From contig JAUVFC010000001.1 in assembly GCA_030594505.1 (NCBI GenBank), positions 1 through 33,365 on the forward strand: a stretch of 33,365 nucleotides of DNA, given 5' to 3'. Below, in pieces: positions 1-14,863 of the stretch (its first letter is position 1; the number at the start of each line of letters is the position of its first letter). The position numbers and the translations under genes were made by a program. Origin of the DNA: Desulfobacterales bacterium (GTDB lineage Bacteria; Desulfobacterota; Desulfobacteria; Desulfobacterales; C00003106). The notes beneath the pieces are model-generated. The model was given only the letters and a program-made list of their open reading frames with translations. It was not told the DNA's origin and searched no databases.

Positions 1-374
1 CGGCTTCCCGAGAGCAGGCACAGGGGATCGAACAGGTAAGCAAGGCCGTAGCGGAAATGGACAAAGTAACCCAACAAAATGCAGCAGGCGCCGAAGAGTC
101 GGCTTCCGCCTCACAGAGTATGGGCGCCCAGGCAAAAGAGATGCAAAAGATGGTCAGAAACCTGATAACACTCGCGGGGGAGGAAGAAGATAGCTTTGCC
201 GCATCAAGAGACAAGACCGTTTTGGGCATCGACCGCCCGCGTCCGGAGATTGCCGCACGTGCACGGATTGGTAGAGCACAAGCTGTCAGGGCGGAAAGGC
301 CCGCAAAAAAGAAGGACTTTGTCTCCCCGGAGGAGATCATTCCGATGGAAGAGGAAGAGTTCAGTGAATTCTGA
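1..374 (+). CDS. methyl-accepting chemotaxis protein, C-terminal fragment (5' end outside the window)
   Basis: The frame is open from the window edge (..[35 protein letters not shown]..), matching the distal part of an MCP signalling domain. The tail ..EEIIPMEEEEFSEF is paralogous to the tail of the MCP at 3111..4796. Confidence 0.85.
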   Translation, partial: ASREQAQGIEQVSKAVAEMDKVTQQNAAGAEESASASQSMGAQAKEMQKMVRNLITLAGEEEDSFAASRDKTVLGIDRPRPEIAARARIGRAQAVRAERPAKKKDFVSPEEIIPMEEEEFSEF

Positions 375-506
375 GCGAGGAGTTCGTTGAGCACAGACTC
401 GATCCGCACAAAAACTTAATATTTTTTTTTCATATCCGATACGTAACACAATATACACAAAATTCATTAAAATTCATACCACCCAGACAAGACAAGGAGT
501 GATTTT

Positions 507-2021
507 ATGTCCAGGACGGTAACCATTGACCCGATCACGAGGATCGAAGGCCACCTTGCAATCCGTATAAAGATAGATTCAAGTCGAGTCGTCAAGGCAT
601 TCAGCTCCGGTGAAATGTTTCGAGGATTCGAGGTAATCTTAAAAGGCCGGGACCCCATGGATGCCCAGCAGATTACGCAAAGGATATGCGGTGTGTGTCC
701 GGTATCCCATGGTACAGCGTCTATCCTGGCCCAGGATGCGGCCTACGGGGCAACCCCTCCGAAAAACGGAAGACTGATAAGAAATCTTATCCTGGGCGCC
801 AACTATATACAGTCTCATATCTTACATTTCTATCACCTGGCCGCGCTTGACTTTGTGGATATCACGGCAATTACTAAATACAAGGGAAGAGACCCTGTGC
901 TGCGCGATCTGAAAAAATGGGTAAAGGGTCAGATATCATCGAATGTCATCTATCCCGCGGCGCCGTTCCTTCCACGTTACTCCGGTAAATATATCCAGAA
1001 TACGGGCTTGAATATCCTGGCTATCAAACACTATCTTGACGCCCTGGACATGCGGACACTTGCCCATAAGGCGGGAGCGGTCTTTGGGGGGAAGCTCCCA
1101 CATGCCGCAACCTTGGTGCCCGGTGGCGTAACCGAAAAGGTGACTGCCGTCAAGATAGCCGCATATGCGTCGATGATCAGCAAGTTGCAGACCTTTATCG
1201 ACAAATCGTACCTCACGGACGTGGGGGAAGTGGCAGCGGCCTTCCCTGAATATTTCCGGATAGGCAAGGGGTGCGGCAACTTTTTGGCCTACGGGGTGTT
1301 CCCCGAATCCGCGAATAATTCAGAAAAACTCCTCCCTTCCGGCGTGGTCGTCGGAGGCAGGCTCAGATCCTTTGACGCAGCAAGAATTACGGAAGATGTC
1401 AGGTATTCCTTTTATTCGTCATCATCCGGTCTCCACCCGGTTCAAGGTCAAACAGTGCCTGCGCCACATAAAAATGGGGCCTATTCATGGCTTAAGGCGC
1501 CGCGTTATAACGGAACCGTCGTGGAAGTAGGTCCGTTGGCGCGCATCATGGTCGCCTATCTTAAAGGCGAAAATCGAGCGGTTAAAAAATTAGTAAATGG
1601 TCTTCTTGCCAAGTTGGGGAGAAAACCTAAAGACCTGCTCTCTGTGCTGGGGAGACACGCTGCAAGAGCTATTGAATGTAAAGTAGTAGCAGACCGGTGT
1701 GCTGAATGGGTGGAACAGTTAGTCCCGGGAGAACCGACGTTTCAAGACTTCACCATTCCCAAAACAGGAAGAGGTGTGGGATTGACCGAAGCCCCGCGGG
1801 GTGCATTGGGACACTGGCTTGAGATTGATGATCATAAAATAAAGCGCTACCAATGTGTAGTTCCGACTACATGGAACTGTTCTCCCCGTGATGACAATGG
1901 AAATCCGGGGGCCGTGGAGCAGGCGCTCGCAAGAACGCCGATCGCGAACAGTAAAAATCCGATAGAAGCAACACGGGTGGTGAGATCGTTTGATCCGTGC
2001 ATTGCCTGTGCGGTTCATTAA
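507..2021 (+). CDS. [NiFe] hydrogenase large (catalytic) subunit, 504 aa, no C-terminal maturation extension
   Basis: Carries RIEGH and RICGVCPVSH (Cys61/Cys64) near the N-terminus and DPCIACAVH (Cys498/Cys501/His504) at the very C-terminus. AAGGAG RBS at 494..499. The stop codon directly follows the His. Confidence 0.93.
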   Translation: MSRTVTIDPITRIEGHLAIRIKIDSSRVVKAFSSGEMFRGFEVILKGRDPMDAQQITQRICGVCPVSHGTASILAQDAAYGATPPKNGRLIRNLILGANYIQSHILHFYHLAALDFVDITAITKYKGRDPVLRDLKKWVKGQISSNVIYPAAPFLPRYSGKYIQNTGLNILAIKHYLDALDMRTLAHKAGAVFGGKLPHAATLVPGGVTEKVTAVKIAAYASMISKLQTFIDKSYLTDVGEVAAAFPEYFRIGKGCGNFLAYGVFPESANNSEKLLPSGVVVGGRLRSFDAARITEDVRYSFYSSSSGLHPVQGQTVPAPHKNGAYSWLKAPRYNGTVVEVGPLARIMVAYLKGENRAVKKLVNGLLAKLGRKPKDLLSVLGRHAARAIECKVVADRCAEWVEQLVPGEPTFQDFTIPKTGRGVGLTEAPRGALGHWLEIDDHKIKRYQCVVPTTWNCSPRDDNGNPGAVEQALARTPIANSKNPIEATRVVRSFDPCIACAVH

Positions 2022-2116
2022 CGGGTTGCGGGTTGCGGGTTGCGAGTTGCGGGTTGCGGGTTGATAGATAGAAGAGAAGTAAAACTCGTAACTCGCAACT
2101 CGTAACCCGTAACTGT
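2022..2116 (+). repeat. heptamer-array hairpin (6 x CGRGTTG, 20-nt loop, then AACYCGY units)
   Basis: 2031..2062 pairs with 2083..2114 over 32 consecutive pairs: 26 Watson-Crick plus 6 G-U when read as + strand RNA. The array starts on the base after the large-subunit stop codon. Confidence 0.9.
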
Positions 2117-2183
2117 GTCCACCTGCAAAAACCCTTGTGCCAATTTGGTGTTGTTTTGACGACAAAAAATTAGGAGCTTTCAC

Positions 2184-3107
2184 ATGTCTGATATAACTCG
2201 CAGAAAATTCCTGGAACTGAGTGTAAAGCTGGCCGCGCTGATGGGACTCGGGACATCGGCCATTCCGCAAATTGCCGAAGCGCTGGGACGACTTTCCGCA
2301 GGCGCCGCCCCGGTTTTATGGCTGCAAGGGCAAAGTTGCTCCGGCTGTTCGGTCTCACTATTAAATTCTGAAGAGCCCGGGCCGGCACAGATACTGACAG
2401 GATATATCTCCTTGCTGTTTCATTCCACACTGTCCGCCTCTACGGGTGATGTCAGCATGAAGGTCATTAATCGGAGTATAGACGAGGGGGGATACCTTCT
2501 GGTCGTTGAGGGGAGCATCCCGGCAGGAATGCCGGAAGCGTGCATAGTAGGGAAAGAACATTTAACAAAACAGGTCTTGCGGGCCTCAAGAAACGCCAAA
2601 GCAGTGATCGCTATAGGCACATGCGCATCATTCGGCGGCATCCCTGCCGCGGAAAATAACCCCACCGGCGCCGTGGGTCTTCCTGATTTTCTAAAAAGCA
2701 ACGGTGTCTCAACGCCGGTGATCACCCTGCCCGGTTGCCCCGCCCATCCGGACTGGCTGGTGGGAACTCTGGTGCACGTACTGAAATTTGGAATCCCGTC
2801 TCTGGATGACAAGGGTCGCCCCAAGATGTTTTTTTCCAGGCTGATTCACGATCAATGTCCCCGTTTCGCAGATTATGAAAGGGAGAATTTTGCCGGGACC
2901 TTTTCAGATGAAGGATGCCTTTTCAATCTGGGCTGCCTCGGACCGGTCACCCACGCTGATTGCACCCTGCGCCATTGGAATTCCGGCACCAATTGCTGCA
3001 TCAATGCAGGAGCGCCGTGTATCGGATGTGCCTCGGAAAATTTCGCGGCCAGGGCATCGTTTCCTTTTTATAGAAAAGGGGAACAGAATAAGGGAAAGGA
3101 AAGATAA
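2184..3107 (+). CDS. [NiFe] hydrogenase small (Fe-S) subunit with twin-arginine (Tat) signal peptide
   Basis: The N-terminus MSDITRRKFLELSVKLAALMGLG.. is a Tat motif. CSGC, GTCA and GCP are proximal-cluster motifs. HDQC..C-x5-C..C..CIGC are the distal/medial cluster ligands. AGGAG RBS at 2172..2176. No C-terminal membrane anchor. Confidence 0.92.
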   Translation: MSDITRRKFLELSVKLAALMGLGTSAIPQIAEALGRLSAGAAPVLWLQGQSCSGCSVSLLNSEEPGPAQILTGYISLLFHSTLSASTGDVSMKVINRSIDEGGYLLVVEGSIPAGMPEACIVGKEHLTKQVLRASRNAKAVIAIGTCASFGGIPAAENNPTGAVGLPDFLKSNGVSTPVITLPGCPAHPDWLVGTLVHVLKFGIPSLDDKGRPKMFFSRLIHDQCPRFADYERENFAGTFSDEGCLFNLGCLGPVTHADCTLRHWNSGTNCCINAGAPCIGCASENFAARASFPFYRKGEQNKGKER

Positions 3108-3110
3108 TAT

Positions 3111-4796
3111 ATGAAACTTCATACCAGATTATTTGATCATAAGAAGCTTCATACCAAATTGATTGTTTCGCTCGTGGGGGGCCTGATTGTCGTTGTTGCA
3201 CTGGCCCAGCTTATGCAGTACTTTGGCATTACAGGGTCAATTTCCGGTCTTTCAGAATCAAACATCAATCTCCTCAAGGAGAGGGAAGAAGAGAACGCCA
3301 AAAATATATTCCGGGCAGTAGAACAGGCTGTTGGCGGATCTCTTGAAAGAGGAGAAATGGAAAAATTCACCAAAATCCTCGAAGCCCAACGGGAAGTGGA
3401 AGGCTTGCTCGAGTTTTCTCTGTACGACCGCGAGGGGGTTGTATCACATTCCTCAGATCCTTCATTTCTAAAAAAGGAGCTTCCGCCGGATATTAAAACC
3501 CGGCTACTCGGTTCCCCTGAGATGCTTCTCCTCCATACACAAGAAGCGCTGGAGATTTATCAGCCTCAAAAGATCACAGGCGACTGTATCCGCTGTCATA
3601 TGGATTGGAAGACAGGGGATATAGGAGGGATAACCCATTTTAGATTTTCAACGGAAGCTTTAAGAAAAGCGGAAACGCAGGCAACAGCAACCATAGCGGA
3701 TGCGCAAAGCACATCGCTCAGGAATTCTTTCCTCACCGTACTCGGAATTATTGTCGTATCCGTAGTTACGATGTATTTTCTGATAAAAAAATTCGTAGGC
3801 CGGCCGCTCGACCAATTTATGCGGCTCCTGAAACAATCTAAAGGAGACCTTACACGTCGAATGCCGATAACAACACAAGACGAAATAGGGCAATTGGCAC
3901 GCTGGTTCAACTCCTTCATGGAACAGTTAAACAATGCAATCGGACATGCACAAGAGGCGGCCTTTATAGTAGGAAGCGGGGCCAGCGAACAAGCGGCCGC
4001 GGTAGAAGAGACCTCCGGATCCATGGAAGAGATGGCCTCCATGACCAAACAGAATGCGAGCAATGCTCAGGAAGCAAACAAGTTAATGACGGAAGTCTCT
4101 CAGGAGATCCATCAGGCCAATGAATCAATGAACTCCCTGACTCGCGCAATGGAGGAACTCTCAGAGGCAAGTGATAAAACAGCCAGGATCGTCAAGACAA
4201 TCGATGAAATTGCCTTTCAGACAAATCTCCTTGCCCTGAATGCAGCGGTGGAAGCTGCCCGTGCAGGAGAGGCAGGGGCAGGTTTTGCGGTAGTGGCTGA
4301 TGAGGTCAGAAACCTTGCCATGAGAGCAGCCGAATCCGCCAAGAGCACATCGGAACTGATCGACGACACCGTAAACAAGATCAAGGACAGCAGTGGTTTG
4401 GTAAGCAGGGCAAACGAAGCGTTTGAAGATGTGGCAGGGAGAAGTAAAAAGGCGGCGGCGCTGGTTAAAGAAATCGCAGCAGCTTCGCAAGAGCAGGCTC
4501 AAGGGATCGAGCAGGTCAATAAATCATTAGTGGAAATGGACAGGACAACCCAGGAAAACGCTGCACAGTCCGAAGAACTCACAGCTACCATGTCAATATT
4601 TAAAACAGAGCAAAGTGAAAATGAAAAACAGATTGAAGCTCCAGGCATAGCTTCAAAATCTGAAAAGAAGATTCGACCTGAAAAGAAGATTCGACCTGAA
4701 AAGGAGATTCGACCTGAAAAGATTATCCCGATGGATGATGACCTGTGGGATAATGACCTATGGGATAATGATGAAAAAAAATTCGAGGATTTTTAA
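3111..4796 (+). CDS. methyl-accepting chemotaxis protein with periplasmic CXXCH (haem-c type) sensor domain
   Basis: TM1 spans residues 17-38. A periplasmic domain of about 165 aa contains CIRCH (3585..3599). TM2 spans residues 206-226, followed by a HAMP-like segment. The signalling domain has the tip motif [38 protein letters not shown]. The ATG lies 3 nt after the small-subunit stop. Confidence 0.92.
4661..4724 (+). repeat. in-frame 18-bp tandem repeat (3.5 copies) in the MCP C-terminal linker
   Basis: tgaaaagaagattcgacc x2, tgaaaaggagattcgacc, then a partial tgaaaagatt. Encodes (E)[20 protein letters not shown]. Confidence 0.95.
4740..4769 (+). repeat. in-frame 15-bp tandem repeat (2 copies) in the MCP tail
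   Basis: gacctgtgggataat / gacctatgggataat, encoding [10 protein letters not shown]. Confidence 0.95.
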
Positions 4797-5176
4797 TTGT
4801 TGACTTTCTCGGTTTTACCTTCTGCGGCAATCAACTCCACAAAAGACATGGGAGCAGCATCTCCTCTCCGGCGCCCTGTCTTTGTTATCCTGGTATATCC
4901 GCCGTTTCTGTTCCCATAGAGGTTATGTGCTTCTTCAAAAAGCTTGTGGACGACCTTCTTGTTTCTCACCACTGCAAGGGCCTGTCTTCTGGCATGAAGA
5001 TCTCCCCGTTTTGCTAATGTAATTATCTTGTCAGCCCAACGCCGGACCTCCTTGGCTCTGGTATCGGTAGTCCTGATGTGACCGTGCTCCAATAATGAGG
5101 TCACCATATTTCTAAACATCGCCGTCCGATGACTCGATGTTCTATTCAGCTTTAATCCGGATTTGAGGTGTCTCAT
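4793..5176 (-). CDS. rplQ: 50S ribosomal protein L17
   Basis: [17 protein letters not shown].. is a typical L17 N-terminus. The ATG at 5176 is preceded by GAAGGGGA. The ORF track's upstream start (5197) was not used. Confidence 0.92.
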
Positions 5177-6212
5177 TTTTCCCCTTCTCTTTCTCATTGT
5201 TGTCGGGCGACAGTGGGAAACCTTCCAATTTCATCCCTAAAGAGAGGGACATTTCAGCTAAAATCTCTTTAATCTCGTTCAACGACTTGCGCCCAAAATT
5301 TTTTGTCTTTAGCATCTCGACCTCTGTTTTTTGAACCAGGTCACTGATATATTTTATATCGGCATTCTTGAGACAGTTGGCCGAACGTACCGAAAGCTCA
5401 AGTTCATCCACGCTTCTGAACAGATTTTGATTGATCTCAGGTTCTTCTTTCGTGGGTTCCTCTTCAACTACCACTTCCTCATCAAAATTAATAAAAAGGG
5501 TAAGCTGTTCTTTTAATATCTTTGCGGCATATGCCACAGAGTCTTCCGGCAAGACACTTCCATCAGTCCATACTTCCAGGCTCAGCTTGTCATAGTCGGT
5601 CTTCTGGCCCACACGAGCATTGCCAACAATATAATTAACCTTCTTTATGGGAGAAAAAACAGCATCAAGCGGGACGGTCCCAAGGGGGCTGTCTTCCTCT
5701 TTATTTAATTCCGATGGGACATACCCTTTCCCCACCTTTACAGTAATGTCCATAGCCAGTTTGCCATCCTTGGAAAGTGTTGCAATGTGGCGCTCAGGAT
5801 TCAACACGACCACACTTCCATCGGTTATAAGGTCAGACGCTTTAACAACACACTCTCCCGAGGCCTTGATCCGCACTGTTCGCGGCCCCATATCTTCCAT
5901 TTTGAAACAGACTTCTTTAATATTTAACAAAAGATCTGCCACATCTTCCAACACACCGGGAATGCTTGTGAATTCATGTGTCACCGAATCAATCTTCACT
6001 GATGTCGCAGCAGCGCCGTACAGTGAAGACAAAAGTACTCTTCGCAGGGCATTGCCGATGGTCAGGCCAAACCCTCTTTCCAACGGCTCACAAACAAACT
6101 TTCCATAATAATTCTTGTGCGTTTCAGGAATTATGTTGACCCTTTTAGGCTTGATAAGCTCACGCCAATTAATGGACATTAATCCTTTTGATTCTTTCGA
6201 TCCCATTATCAT
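5142..6212 (-). CDS. rpoA: DNA-directed RNA polymerase alpha subunit
   Basis: ..[11 protein letters not shown].. N-terminal domain and a C-terminal domain with [13 protein letters not shown]. The start is uncertain: ATG at 6212 or 6206 (after GGGGAG) or ATG at 6179 (after AAGGA). The 3' end overlaps rplQ by 35 nt. Confidence 0.9.
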
Positions 6213-6391: not shown

Positions 6392-7021
6392 CTATTTTGA
6401 ATAAAGCTCTACAATAAGCTGTTCTTGAATAGGCATTGTTAAATCTTCACGCGTCGGAAAGGCATTGACCTTCCCTCTGAAATTTTCCTTGTCAAGTTCC
6501 AGCCATTTAGTTATGCCCCTCCGCTCCACAGCGTCCATTGCTTCAGCAAACAGTGAGATTGTACGTTTCTTCTCCTTTACCTCAATCACATCGCCAACTT
6601 TTACCAAATAAGAAGGGATATCTACTTTTCTCCCGTTGACCGTAAAGTGTCCGTGCCGAACTAATAACCGTGCCTGTGTACGGGAATTAGCAAGACCGAG
6701 CCGATAAACAACATTATCCATCCTGCGTTCCAAAAGCACCAACAGACTCGTACCTGTAATTCCCTTTTGACGCTCCGCCGCTTTAAAATAAGAGTGGAAT
6801 TGTTTTTCCAGCAGACCATACATTCTCTTGACCTTCTGTTTTTCCCGGAGCTGTATCGCGTAATCTGAAAGCTTGCCGGCACGACGCTGTCCGTGTTGTC
6901 CCGGCGCATAACTACGCCTGTCGTAGGCACACTTGTCCGTATAACACCTATCACCCTTTAAAAACAGCTTAAGATTCTCTTTGCGGCACAATCTGCATAC
7001 TGACCTAATATATCTTGCCAA
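6392..7021 (-). CDS. rpsD: 30S ribosomal protein S4
   Basis: (M)[14 protein letters not shown].. N-terminus with four Cys. TTG start (caa at 7019..7021) after AGGAGG. Confidence 0.95.
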
Positions 7022-7062
7022 AATATCCTCCTGTTAACTTAATCGCCTTCGGCTAAACTTTT

Positions 7063-7105
7063 TAGACAGGATTTACAGGATTTTTTATCCTGTTTATCCT
7101 GTCTA
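7063..7105. repeat. palindrome of phased ACAGGAT 7-mers in the rpsK-rpsD spacer
   Basis: tagACAGGATttACAGGAT-ttttt-ATCCTGTttATCCTGTcta. The arms are 19 nt with a central 2x2 mismatch. Confidence 0.8.
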
Positions 7106-7138
7106 ACAAAAAGGAAATTCCTATACTATTAAACTCTC

Positions 7139-7531
7139 TTACACTCTCCTCCTCTTTGGAGGTCTACAACCATTATGGGGAATAGGGGTAACATCTTTAA
7201 TTAACCGGACATTAAATCCTGTGGCTTGAAGTGCCCGTAAAGCAGCTTCTCTCCCGGCCCCCGGCCCTTTTACATATACATCTATATTCTTCATTCCGTG
7301 TTCCATCGCCTTTTTGGCCGCATCTTCAGCCGCAAGCTGGGCGGCAAAGGGGGTACTTTTTCTCGACCCCTTAAATCCTTGCATGCCGGCGCTTGCCCAC
7401 GAAATTACATTTCCGGACTGGTCCGTGATCGTCACAATCGTATTATTAAATGTGGATTGGATATGCGCAACCCCGTTTTGAACAAACTTTTTGACCTGTT
7501 TTTTGCCTCCCCGACGGCTCGCTTTTACCAT
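7139..7531 (-). CDS. rpsK: 30S ribosomal protein S11
   Basis: ..[29 protein letters not shown].. are S11 signatures. Confidence 0.96.
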
Positions 7532-7562
7532 TTTACCCCCTAATCTTTTTTGATGAAAATCA

Positions 7563-7934
7563 TCACTTCTTCCGCTTGCCTACTGTAGCACGACGTGGTC
7601 CTTTACGAGTCCTGGCGTTGGTATGGGTTCTCTGCCCCCTTACCGGCAGTGACTTCCTGTGACGCAAACCCCTATAGCAGCCCAAGTCCATCAATCGCTT
7701 GATGTTCATAGAAATTTCACTGCGGAGATCACCTTCGACCTTATATTCGTTATCTATGACCTTTCTGATATCGCTTACCTGGGCGTCAGTGAGTTCATCG
7801 GTTTTCATATCTAAACCGATACCTGCTTTTCCCAATATCTTTTGGGACGTTATACGTCCGATTCCAAAAATATAGGTTAACCCAATCTCGATACGCTTCC
7901 CCCTGGGCAAATCAACTCCAGCAATCCTTGCCAA
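7563..7934 (-). CDS. rpsM: 30S ribosomal protein S13
   Basis: (M)[25 protein letters not shown]... TTG start (caa at 7932..7934) after AAGGAGG. Confidence 0.96.
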
Positions 7935-7946
7935 TCTTTACCTCCT

Positions 7947-8060
7947 TTATCCTTGTCTTTGTTTATGACGCGGATTCTCGCAAATTACCCTTATAATGCC
8001 TTTGCGCTTAACAATCTTACACTTAGGACACATCTTTTTAACCGAAGCCCTGACTTTCAT
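7947..8060 (-). CDS. rpmJ: 50S ribosomal protein L36 (Cys-containing form)
   Basis: Absent from the ORF track (37 aa). My translation of the - strand gives [37 protein letters not shown]-stop. ATG at 8060..8058, TAA at 7949..7947, GGAGAAAGAAG upstream. Confidence 0.93.
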
Positions 8061-8090
8061 CTTCTTTCTCCAAACTTCCAATTTAAATTA

Positions 8091-8230
8091 GGGCACAGAT
8101 TTTCACAGATAAACACGGATATCTATTTTCTATAATTATCGAATACCTTAATTTCCCTTTTTAACCCGCAACCCGTAACTCGCAACTCTATATTTAACAT
8201 CCTGATAATCTGCGTTCATCTGTGTCCAAA
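8091..8230. repeat. composite repeat: inverted triplets of 10-bp-phased CACAGAT 7-mers flanking a one-armed heptamer array
   Basis: Left arm is gggCACAGATtttCACAGATaaaCACGGATatc (8091..8123). The right arm, reverse-complemented, is ttggaCACAGATgaaCGCAGATtatCAGGAT (8201..8230). Internal units aacccgc aacccgt aactcgc aactcta lie at 8163..8190. Confidence 0.8.
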
Positions 8231-8249
8231 ATGAGAATATACTATGAAC

Positions 8250-8468
8250 TTATTTGGATCGATAAGTAATCCTCCCCCTCGTAAGGTCATACGGCGAAAG
8301 TTCCACCGTAACCGTATCCCCGGGAAGTATTTTAATAAAGTGCATACGCATCTTTCCCGAAATATGGGCCAAGACGATATGGCCGTTTGGCAATTCTACT
8401 CTAAACATTGCGTTCGGCAGGGTTTCAAGCACCTTCCCTTCAACTTCGATTGCTTCTTCCTTTGCCAT
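8250..8468 (-). CDS. infA: translation initiation factor IF-1
   Basis: [65 protein letters not shown]. Confidence 0.96.
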
Positions 8469-9226
8469 TTAAAACTCCCATCCCGTTTGCTTAAAATCTC
8501 CGGTTCTGTTTCGGTTACTACTACGGTATGTTCGAAGTGGGCCGATAAACTGCCATCCTTTGTCACGGCCGTCCAGCCGTCCTCCAGGGTCTTAACCTCA
8601 TACCCTCCCATATTAACCATTGGCTCTATTGCCAAAACCATTCCGGGCTGGAGACGAATTCCAAATCCCGGTCTTCCGTAATTAGGTATCTGGGGTTCTT
8701 CATGAAGCTCTTTCCCTATGCCATGCCCTACAAACTTCCGAACCACGGAATAACCATTAGTTTCAACATGTGACTGAATAGCGTGAGAAATATCAGAAAG
8801 TCTGTTCCCGTACCGGGCCTGTTCTATTCCCAGGTACAGTGTCTCTTCCGTGACCCGCAATAAGCGACTGACCCTCTCGGGCACCTGACCCACAGGCACG
8901 GTTATGGCTGCATCTCCATAATATCCGTCAAAAAAAACGCCAAAGTCAATGCTGACAATATCTCCTTCTTTCAATGGCGTTGGAGAAGGGAAACCATGAA
9001 CTACCTGGTTGTTTACAGAAGCACAAATAGTATAAGGAAATCCTCTGTACCCCTTGAAAGCAGGTTTCGCCTTGAATTCCCTTGTTAAGTCCTCCGCGCG
9101 TCTATCCAGTTTTAAGGTATCGACACCAAGCCTGATCTCCTCTTTGAGAATCGCGAGAATTTCAGCCACGATTCTATTGCTTACCCTTAACTTCTCGATT
9201 TCTCTTGGAGATTTTAAGGTCACCAT
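8396..9226 (-). CDS. map: methionine aminopeptidase, type I, with a basic C-terminal extension overlapping infA
   Basis: ..[54 protein letters not shown].. The ORF continues 24 codons into infA in another frame. Confidence 0.9.
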
Positions 9227-14805: not shown

Positions 14806-14863
14806 GTTGCGAGTTACGGGTTGCGAGTTTTAAACACGCAACTCGCAACCCGTAGCCCGTAAC
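14806..14863. repeat. GTTGCGR-class heptamer-array hairpin after rpsQ
   Basis: 14806..14829 pairs with 14840..14863 over 24 pairs: 21 Watson-Crick, 2 G-U and 1 A-C as read on the + strand. The loop is 10 nt. Confidence 0.88.

Follow-up and report, generated by a model that had tools for sequence, protein, structure and literature searches.

A candidate H2-taxis input module: a [NiFe] hydrogenase encoded with a chemoreceptor that carries a haem-c motif

The window analysed here comprises 33,365 nucleotides of contig JAUVFC010000001.1 from a Desulfobacterales bacterium (assembly GCA_030594505.1). Near its start it encodes, in the order hydL-hydS-MCP, the large (HydL) and small (HydS) subunits of a [NiFe] hydrogenase and a methyl-accepting chemotaxis protein (MCP) with a haem-c attachment motif in its periplasmic domain. 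We consider it likely that the three genes specify one sensory device, with the hydrogenase providing the input to an H2-responsive chemoreceptor. The three-gene unit is conserved in at least seven phyla and is a cassette, not a local accident. In the window it consists of the following:

507–2021, forward strand: hydL, [NiFe] hydrogenase large subunit, 504 amino acids (PF00374 and NF033181)
2184–3107, forward strand: hydS, [NiFe] hydrogenase small subunit, 307 amino acids (PF01058 and PF14720)
3093–3103, forward strand: purine-rich ribosome-binding region of the MCP gene, GGAAAGGAAAG, inside the hydS 3′ end; 7 nt separate it from the ATG
3111–4796, forward strand: MCP gene, 561 amino acids (PF00672, HAMP, and PF00015, MCPsignal)

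The hydS stop codon (TAA, 3105–3107) and the MCP start codon (ATG, 3111–3113) are separated by a gap of 3 nt. An earlier reading of the window from its letters alone (the original prediction) had pointed to this spacing and had placed the ribosome-binding region of the receptor gene inside hydS; both were verified at these coordinates. It had also described the cluster as running head-on into rplQ without a cytochrome, protease or kinase gene before that point. Indeed, the MCP stop codon (TAA, 4794–4796) overlaps the stop (4793–4795) of the convergent rplQ (4793–5197, minus strand), no cytochrome, maturation endopeptidase or histidine kinase is encoded from 507 to rplQ, and within 507–4796 no open reading frame (ORF) beyond the three genes has a family match.

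By itself, a 3-nt spacing between hydS and the MCP gene means little. An alignment of the sensor domain only was searched against 185,579 species-representative genomes (one per species), and the hydrogenase genes in the 79 loci recovered were scored by tblastn:

59 of the 79 loci: strict hydL-hydS-MCP order
5 loci: both hydrogenase genes present, rearranged or 0.3–2 kb apart
7 loci: hydS adjacent, contig end before hydL
4 loci: hydS adjacent, hydL disrupted or displaced
2 loci: too little upstream sequence to be informative, no hydrogenase fragment
2 loci (L015 and L020): no hydrogenase within the flank

At 73 of the 75 informative loci, hydS and/or hydL adjoin the MCP gene. The arrangement goes beyond chance because it recurs in 59 of the 79 independent loci, from many phyla and with otherwise unrelated flanks; such flanks were seen across Desulfobacterota, Verrucomicrobiota, Omnitrophota, Riflebacteria, Spirochaetota, Planctomycetota, and Sumerlaeota. 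Three distant relatives of the MCP (49–60% identity) are encoded with hydL (503–504 residues) and hydS (303–317 residues) in wholly different neighbourhoods, and full-length MCP homologues, in which CXXCH is nearly invariant, occur in Thermodesulfobacteriota, Omnitrophota, Riflebacteria, multicellular magnetotactic bacteria, and Verrucomicrobiota. Cultured carriers include Desulfosarcina cetonica JCM 12296 and Desulfocarbo indianensis SCBM.

A search blind to the MCP gave a concordant picture. Metagenome contigs recovered with hydL as the seed contain hydS and a sensor MCP wherever the downstream DNA sufficed, with a single exception (L092), and some of these loci have the order hydS-MCP-hydL. 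Conservation of the neighbourhood in relatives, on which the original prediction had staked itself, is thus borne out from both seeds. The junction of hydS with the MCP gene is the most stable in the cassette. Among 94 measured junctions, 31 have a 4-nt overlap, 14 have the 3-nt gap found in the window, and 74 fall between −4 and +20 nt. The association of hydrogenase and MCP holds down to 52–54% HydL identity (L107 and L108) and ends at an outgroup of 40% identity (L111 and L112), which encodes an anchored small subunit, an extended large subunit, and cytochrome b, in that order. When the flanking ORFs of 112 loci were clustered, only CheB, CheW, CheR, HypA, HypB, HypD, and HypF recurred, in 6–23 loci each; this clustering revealed no recurrent cytochrome (b or c3) and no endopeptidase family.

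Five loci (L089, L090, L091, L039, and L027) have rotated gene orders, either hydS-MCP-hydL or with the MCP gene upstream of hydL-hydS. In two long-read metagenome-assembled genomes, the hydL upstream of hydS-MCP aligns over its first half only (L057, ~4288–6072; L070, ~2608–6071); frameshifts, an insertion, or a pseudogene could account for this.

The hydrogenase genes encode what appears to be an intact enzyme. HydL matches PF00374 (E 8.5e-163) and passes the NCBIfam family test NF033181 (676 bits; cut-off 600), and its four cysteine ligands to Ni and Fe, Cys61 and Cys64 (nt 687–698) and Cys498 and Cys501 (nt 1998–2009), are 100% conserved among 81 relatives. HydS carries ligands for a proximal cluster (C52, C55, C147, and C185), a medial cluster (C260, C272, C279, and C282), and a distal cluster (H222, C225, C245, and C251), and all 12 are 0.99–1.00 conserved in 90 relatives. 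The medial cluster would be a [4Fe-4S] cluster, as in the [NiFeSe] enzymes, because it has four Cys ligands. Judged by ligand conservation, HydLS is predicted to hold a complete catalytic site and electron relay: the features of a functional [NiFe] heterodimer, namely both CxxC pairs, the Fe-S ligands, and matches to PF00374, PF01058, and PF14720 above cut-off, are all present. A test for the [FeFe] H-cluster domain was negative, with only [NiFe] families matching.

The enzyme is about 50% identical to respiratory [NiFeSe]/[NiFe] group 1 enzymes. The solved structures closest to HydL come from the [NiFeSe] hydrogenases of D. vulgaris and Dm. baculatum, and the best match to HydS in the PDB is the [NiFeSe] small subunit 2wpn_A. 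The L2 motif of HydL, DPCIACAVH, contains Cys and not selenocysteine, and the scores for the HysA/HysB equivalog families are below cut-off (NF045518, 542 vs 780; NF045520, 297 vs 470).

HydS begins with the twin-arginine sequence MSDITRRKFLE (RR at nt 2199–2204), the start of a twin-arginine translocation (Tat) signal peptide spanning approximately residues 1–33 (nt 2184–2282), in which AEA at residues 31–33 is a possible signal-peptidase site. A Tat motif resembling RRxFL is found in 97 of 98 small subunits. The C-terminus of HydS is short and hydrophilic and has no hydrophobic membrane anchor, so the earlier description of the small subunit as Tat-targeted and anchorless stands.

One feature sets HydL apart from respiratory large subunits. 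Its final residue is His504 (nt 2016–2018), directly followed by TAA, so that the protein has no C-terminal extension. The same holds for 91 of 93 complete hydL genes, in which the His of DPC[IL]ACAVH is the last residue encoded; in another gene it is the His of the variant DPCLSCSVH. Among the complete hydL genes compared, an extension, of 23 residues, is present only in the two outgroup genes L111 and L112. P0283 and P0284, which represent the nearest clusters at 50% identity (53–54% identity to HydL), have extensions of 14–15 residues. Because these nearest relatives and the outgroup keep the extension, it must have been lost within the lineage of the cassette hydrogenase. The lack of an extension is a trait of the large subunits HoxC and HupV of the H2-sensing regulatory hydrogenases. 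We also considered whether the TAA after His504 could be a sequencing truncation or a readthrough site, which was rejected; the frame downstream contains only a repeat hairpin, and 91 of 93 relatives stop there too.

Two representative-library matches with 46% identity to HydL, P0287 and P0293, are further extension-less large-subunit lineages. In P0293 the proton-transfer motif RIEGH is RVHGH, L1 contains CGTC, and GPC stands where L2 usually has DPC; this lineage may represent another sensory or atypical hydrogenase group.

The MCP has the domain arrangement of a transmembrane chemoreceptor, with the candidate haem site between its two membrane-spanning segments:

3159–3224, forward strand: first transmembrane segment, residues ~17–38
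3225–3725, forward strand: periplasmic single-Cache-like sensor domain, ~167 residues (AlphaFold2 model and Foldseek)
3357–3359, forward strand: Met83, candidate distal haem ligand, inside an invariant motif
3585–3599, forward strand: haem-c attachment motif C159-I-R-C162-H163, within D-C-[IV]-R-C-H-x-x-W
3726–3785, forward strand: second transmembrane segment, residues ~206–225
3795–3932, forward strand: HAMP domain (PF00672, E 2.4e-9)
4089–4547, forward strand: signalling domain (PF00015, E 3.2e-42)

The single CXXCH that the original prediction had assigned to the periplasmic domain is thus in place. In an alignment of sensor domains, D158, C159, R161, C162, H163, and W166 are invariant, and CXXCH occurs together with Met83 in 95 of 98 domains, never without it; the motif had also been expected to persist in relatives, and it does. 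At the cytoplasmic end, an alignment of full-length MCPs shows an intact hairpin tip, with I364, Q370, T371, A385, G386, and A403 invariant.

Two receptors of a small sister lineage that lacks the haem motif bear on the role of Met83:

L108, 7547–9184: CXXCH replaced by DMHRLQ, Met83 replaced by Tyr (GEY)
L117 (P0095), 3221–4897: CXXCH replaced by DMVRLQ, Met83 replaced by Ser (GES)

Because Met83 and CXXCH vanish together in both, a role for Met83 as haem ligand fits the alignment. An AlphaFold2 model of the sensor domain, built from 29 sequences (mean predicted local distance difference test score 88.1), starts with a long N-terminal helix, which is followed by another helix and by a five-stranded PAS/Cache-like sheet, with CXXCH in a short helix (157–162) between the last two strands, formed by residues 146–154 and 171–180. 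Foldseek matches this model to the single-Cache sensors WalK, CitA, DcuS, and DctB, as well as to the haem-c MCP sensors GSU0935 (3b42, E 7e-5) and GSU0582 (3b47, E 3.6e-4). The spacing from Met to His is 80 residues in the window MCP (Met83 to His163) and 84 in GSU0935. The haem of GSU0935 is ligated by His144 and Met60, with Met bound only in the reduced state; this change of ligation is the proposed signalling switch, and the midpoint potentials are −251 mV for GSU0935 and −156 mV for GSU0582 (PMC8396549).

At the level of sequence the sensor domain stands apart. Pfam and NCBIfam contain no family that matches it above threshold, and its score against PF11845 (Tll0287-like/sCache_haem) is 12.1 bits, compared to a gathering threshold of 24.1 (E 0.27); 9 of the 29 relatives give weak matches to PF11845, the best with E 0.0073. 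A search of PDB sequences with a sensor profile yielded only chance matches, which included neither 3b42 nor 3b47. Since similarity to sCache_haem remains below threshold, we regard the domain as a distinct family with an invariant signature of its own, at best distantly related to sCache_haem.

The same haem sensor is fused to a HisKA histidine kinase in the rare variants P0131 (L085, 649–1503) and P0133. P0131 is on a 1.5-kb contig, on which the upstream fragment is a permease-like gene. Orphan receptors, with no hydrogenase nearby, were also seen: in L020; in L015, where the haem MCP gene (6998–8665) lies divergently beside a cheA-cheW-cheB cluster; and in L118, whose CXXCH receptor (P0113) is divergent in sequence, is without the GSLERGEM motif, and has no hydrogenase gene up to 6 kb away.

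Based on these features, the device probably operates as follows. HydL would mature without endopeptidase cleavage, as it has no C-terminal extension, and would fold with HydS into a heterodimer before export by the Tat system on the HydS signal peptide. The MCP would be co-translated with the hydrogenase from the same mRNA and made stoichiometrically. In the periplasm, the anchorless enzyme would dock on the single-Cache haem-c domain of the receptor, and electrons from H2 oxidation at the Ni-Fe site would pass through the three [4Fe-4S] clusters to the receptor haem, with His163 as the proximal and Met83 as the probable distal ligand. A change in haem redox state could alter its coordination, as in GSU0582 and GSU0935, and so move the second transmembrane segment and HAMP domain and control CheA at the signalling tip. 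Because [NiFe] enzymes are reversible and no other acceptor is encoded, the haem would be expected to equilibrate with the H2/H+ couple; its redox state would then track the local H2/H+ potential, allowing the cell to read the H2 concentration and steer its motility. The analysis establishes the gene content, the conservation of the cofactor ligands, the obligate co-occurrence with its tight junctions, the lost extension, and the modelled sensor fold; we infer that haem is attached, that the enzyme docks and passes electrons to the haem, and that motility is the output, as well as the sign of the response. The claim at the centre of the original prediction, that the enzyme converts H2 availability into a chemotaxis signal through the receptor, gains support from the conserved linkage, the CXXCH/Met83 pair, the loss of the extension, the hyp and che genes in the flanks, and the fold of the sensor, with electron transfer among its conjectural steps.

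The cassette resembles several known systems but differs from each. HoxBC-HoxJ of Cupriavidus necator and HupUV-HupT of Rhodobacter (HydDB group 2b) are likewise [NiFe] hydrogenases that feed a transducer, and they share with the cassette an extension-less large subunit, the lack of an encoded respiratory acceptor, and a transducer gene beside the enzyme genes. However, HoxBC and HupUV are cytoplasmic enzymes without a Tat signal, have a PAS histidine kinase as partner, control transcription, and are encoded in small-large order, whereas the cassette enzyme is predicted to be Tat-exported, is derived from group 1, is partnered with a transmembrane MCP through a haem-c Cache domain, has motility as its predicted output, and is encoded in large-small order. 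The Tat signal, group 1 ancestry, and MCP partner place the cassette outside group 2b; its best matches are all periplasmic or membrane-bound group 1 enzymes.

The closest relatives in sequence and structure are the group 1a enzymes HysAB and HynAB of sulfate reducers, with which the cassette enzyme has Tat export and three Fe-S clusters in common, and the four-Cys medial cluster is shared with the [NiFeSe] enzymes. In each case the distal cluster is the expected exit for the electrons, and a c-type haem their destination. Cys takes the place of selenocysteine in the cassette enzyme, which differs from the group 1a enzymes also in having no extension, no lipoprotein N-terminus, and large-small gene order, and the presumed acceptor is a one-haem receptor domain encoded in the cassette rather than the tetrahaem cytochrome c3 that serves HysAB and HynAB. 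The cleavable extension with its endopeptidase and the cytochrome or membrane partner of respiratory group 1 enzymes are absent from the cassette, and the window as a whole encodes no cytochrome or protease of this kind, whereas the outgroup L111 has an extension and cytochrome b.

On the receptor side, GSU0582 and GSU0935 of Geobacter, the PF11845 family, and DcrA of Desulfovibrio likewise have a single-Cache periplasmic domain between two transmembrane segments and an MCP output. The likeness to the haem-c sensors extends to one CXXCH in a short inserted helix and a Met in the N-terminal helical region, approximately 80 residues before the His ligand. The window sensor thus has, according to its model, the extracytoplasmic single-Cache fold and CXXCH helix of sCache_haem, but not a match to the PF11845 profile. 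An obligate hydrogenase partner is a trait of the cassette receptor that is unreported for sensors of the GSU0582, GSU0935, and DcrA type, and the word "hydrogenase" does not occur in the sCache_haem paper. The energy taxis receptor Aer is similar in that the redox state of a cofactor (FAD) in a PAS/Cache-type domain controls MCP signalling (PMC9668731). Aer monitors the respiratory chain via FAD on the cytoplasmic side, whereas the cassette would use a dedicated periplasmic enzyme and give a signal specific for H2.

The idea of a hydrogenase that signals to an MCP is not wholly unprecedented. HydDB lists an [FeFe] group C2, "chemotactic (putative)", in which a hydrogenase is predicted to feed an MCP as input for H2 taxis; its role is given as undetermined, possibly regulation via methyl-accepting chemotaxis proteins (PMC5037454). 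The C2 enzymes differ in having another metal centre, belonging to an unrelated protein family, and being cytoplasmic. HydDB also lists the kinase-linked [NiFe] 2b and the putatively diguanylate-cyclase-linked [NiFe] 2c, and the scheme holds no MCP-linked [NiFe] class (PMC5037454). The original prediction knew of no characterised hydrogenase-to-MCP wiring. Full-text searches of the literature found no description of a [NiFe] hydrogenase-MCP cluster; for [FeFe] enzymes such a link had already been predicted.

Several observations weigh against the reading of the cassette as an H2-responsive chemoreceptor with the haem as electron acceptor. The haem MCP gene has no hydrogenase genes near it in L015 and L020, and conversely the MCP gene is missing beside the hydrogenase genes of L092. 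The gas-channel residues of HydL are ordinary (CGVC and HFYHL) and carry no mark of catalytic attenuation. The genes of the two haem-less receptors, L108 and L117, still follow immediately on a hydL without extension and a hydS with Tat signal, and sCache_haem domains fused to signalling modules behave as NO sensors (preprint, PMC12889525). Four other explanations were weighed.

The explanation that survives best, although we consider it unlikely, is a conformational one, in which the redox or ligand state of the hydrogenase is passed mechanically to the Cache domain by protein-protein contact and the haem, where there is one, tunes or gates the response. Coupling is not strictly dependent on a c-type haem, since the cassette persists in L108 and L117, where all Fe-S ligands are retained as well, and the mechanism of HoxBC-HoxJ, for which similar coupling is discussed, is itself unresolved (PMC6978683). 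Such coupling does not account for the strong conservation of CXXCH with Met83, nor for an invariant three-cluster relay that ends in a surface-exposed, His-ligated distal cluster, as an electron-transfer interface needs.

Slightly less probable is that the MCP is a sensor of oxidants or gases (O2, NO, or redox, like DcrA) and the hydrogenase an accessory reductase that draws on H2 to maintain or restore a ferrous, ligand-competent haem. The behaviour of the signalling-fused sCache_haem domains would agree with this, and GSU0582 and GSU0935, the fold of which is similar to that of the window sensor, can bind NO and CO, and their oxidised forms are considered the active ones (PMC8396549). However, the window sensor scores under the Pfam threshold for sCache_haem, and a Ni-Fe enzyme with Tat export would be a costly means of poising one haem in strict anaerobes of several phyla, in which periplasmic reductants are abundant. 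Moreover, the output would still depend on H2, making this a variant of H2-modulated taxis and no true alternative.

It is improbable that HydSL is an ordinary, energy-conserving uptake hydrogenase of the periplasm that passes its electrons to a soluble cytochrome c3 or like acceptor encoded at another locus, with the MCP merely co-regulated or sensing the redox pool (energy taxis). The kinship with respiratory group 1 enzymes and the normal active-site and channel motifs are what such an enzyme would have, and the soluble hydrogenases of some Desulfovibrio species also lack an acceptor encoded in the operon. Co-regulation leaves unexplained the near-obligate adjacency, the 4-nt overlaps, and the spread over at least seven phyla, some of which are not known for respiration based on c3. 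The clade-wide loss of the extension is likewise left unexplained, and among the 112 loci che genes recur whereas no cytochrome does.

Finally, since HydS lacks an anchor of its own and chemoreceptor arrays are polar, the periplasmic domain might be a mere non-sensory tether for the soluble hydrogenase at the array or cell pole, but this is highly improbable, as a conserved haem site, a HAMP domain, and an intact signalling tip would be superfluous for anchoring and the occurrence of the same sensor domain on HisKA kinases (P0131 and P0133) points to a signalling role. An H2-responsive chemoreceptor with the hydrogenase as its input remains the reading that we favour.

The surroundings of the cassette in the window include three further features:

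1–374, forward strand: 3′ end of a separate MCP gene that ends EEEFSEF; its frame enters from the window edge
375–506, forward strand: AT-rich spacer 5′ of hydL, presumed promoter region, with a Shine-Dalgarno sequence AAGGAG at 494–499
2022–2183, forward strand: hydL-hydS spacer of 162 nt with a long heptamer-repeat hairpin, and the hydS Shine-Dalgarno sequence AGGAG at 2173–2177

The remainder of the window is a ribosomal-protein/rpoBC region. The ORF at 1–374 is the C-terminus of an MCP, as shown by its BLASTP match to the cassette MCP (E 5e-12). In agreement with the original prediction, 132 nt separate its end from the hydL start codon at 507. This upstream MCP is a mere neighbour outside the conserved cassette, and flanks vary in other genomes. 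A scan for the sigma-70 consensus gave no promoter match above chance level in 375–506, a consensus scan of the window for promoters and terminators performed no better than on shuffled sequence, and there is no terminator-like structure between the convergent MCP and rplQ genes.

The hairpin in the hydL-hydS spacer consists of (GGGTTGC)n at 2023–2064 facing an imperfect inverted copy that ends at ~2108, and the spacer RNA folds with −76 kcal/mol (z = −8.1). The heptamer repeat recurs in the window at ~8161–8181 and 14811–14858, as well as in L006 (835–990) and L022 (1–14); the window as a whole has 11 matches vs 0.12 expected. Because most relatives have a spacer of ~15 nt at this position, the hairpin appears to be a lineage-specific, dispersed insertion resembling repetitive extragenic palindromic elements. 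A role as a regulatory part of the cassette was rejected, given that the repeat is dispersed and absent from most relatives. Lacking a U-tract, the hairpin is not readily taken for a terminator, and it may serve in mRNA stability or processing.

Both ends of the MCP have features of their own. Its tail (4620–4796, residues ~504–561) contains the tandem peptides KKIRPE (three copies) and DLWDN (two copies) and terminates in F-E-D-F; the upstream MCP fragment ends in F-S-E-F (300–374), and several homologues end in F-[KS]-D-F after IPM. This tail looks like a C-terminal motif that tethers CheR/CheB, on a flexible linker. At the other end, the window MCP and its closest relatives have a 10-residue N-terminal extension (3111–3161) that duplicates the usual start of the family, MKLHTKL, which points to tandem duplication of a short stretch at the 5′ end of the gene.

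In anaerobic food webs, H2 is a key currency of syntrophy, sulfate reduction, and fermentation. To our knowledge, no bacterial receptor for H2-directed swimming has been characterised, and all H2 sensing that we know of proceeds via cytoplasmic hydrogenase-kinase pairs that control transcription. H2 taxis has long been hypothesised and was seen in a methanogen without a known receptor (PMC3817446). With middling confidence, we propose that the cassette is the first molecularly defined bacterial H2 chemoreceptor, a horizontally mobile module found in at least seven phyla in which the hydrogenase serves as a reversible "hydrogen electrode" for the single receptor haem, so that chemotaxis signalling would be a direct readout of H2 partial pressure. 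D. cetonica JCM 12296 and D. indianensis SCBM, as cultured carriers, make the hypothesis directly testable. If it is correct, the [NiFe] hydrogenases would gain a new, widespread functional class, sensory enzymes of the periplasm linked to an MCP, which is missing from the 2016 HydDB scheme (PMC5037454). The cassette would provide a molecular handle on H2-directed motility and a compact, modular H2-to-signal converter for biosensor engineering, and metagenome surveys could then avoid counting such genes, which score as respiratory-type periplasmic hydrogenases, as capacity for respiratory H2 uptake. It would also show how a lineage of respiratory enzymes can be turned into a sensor, by losing the C-terminal extension and exchanging the electron acceptor for a receptor haem.

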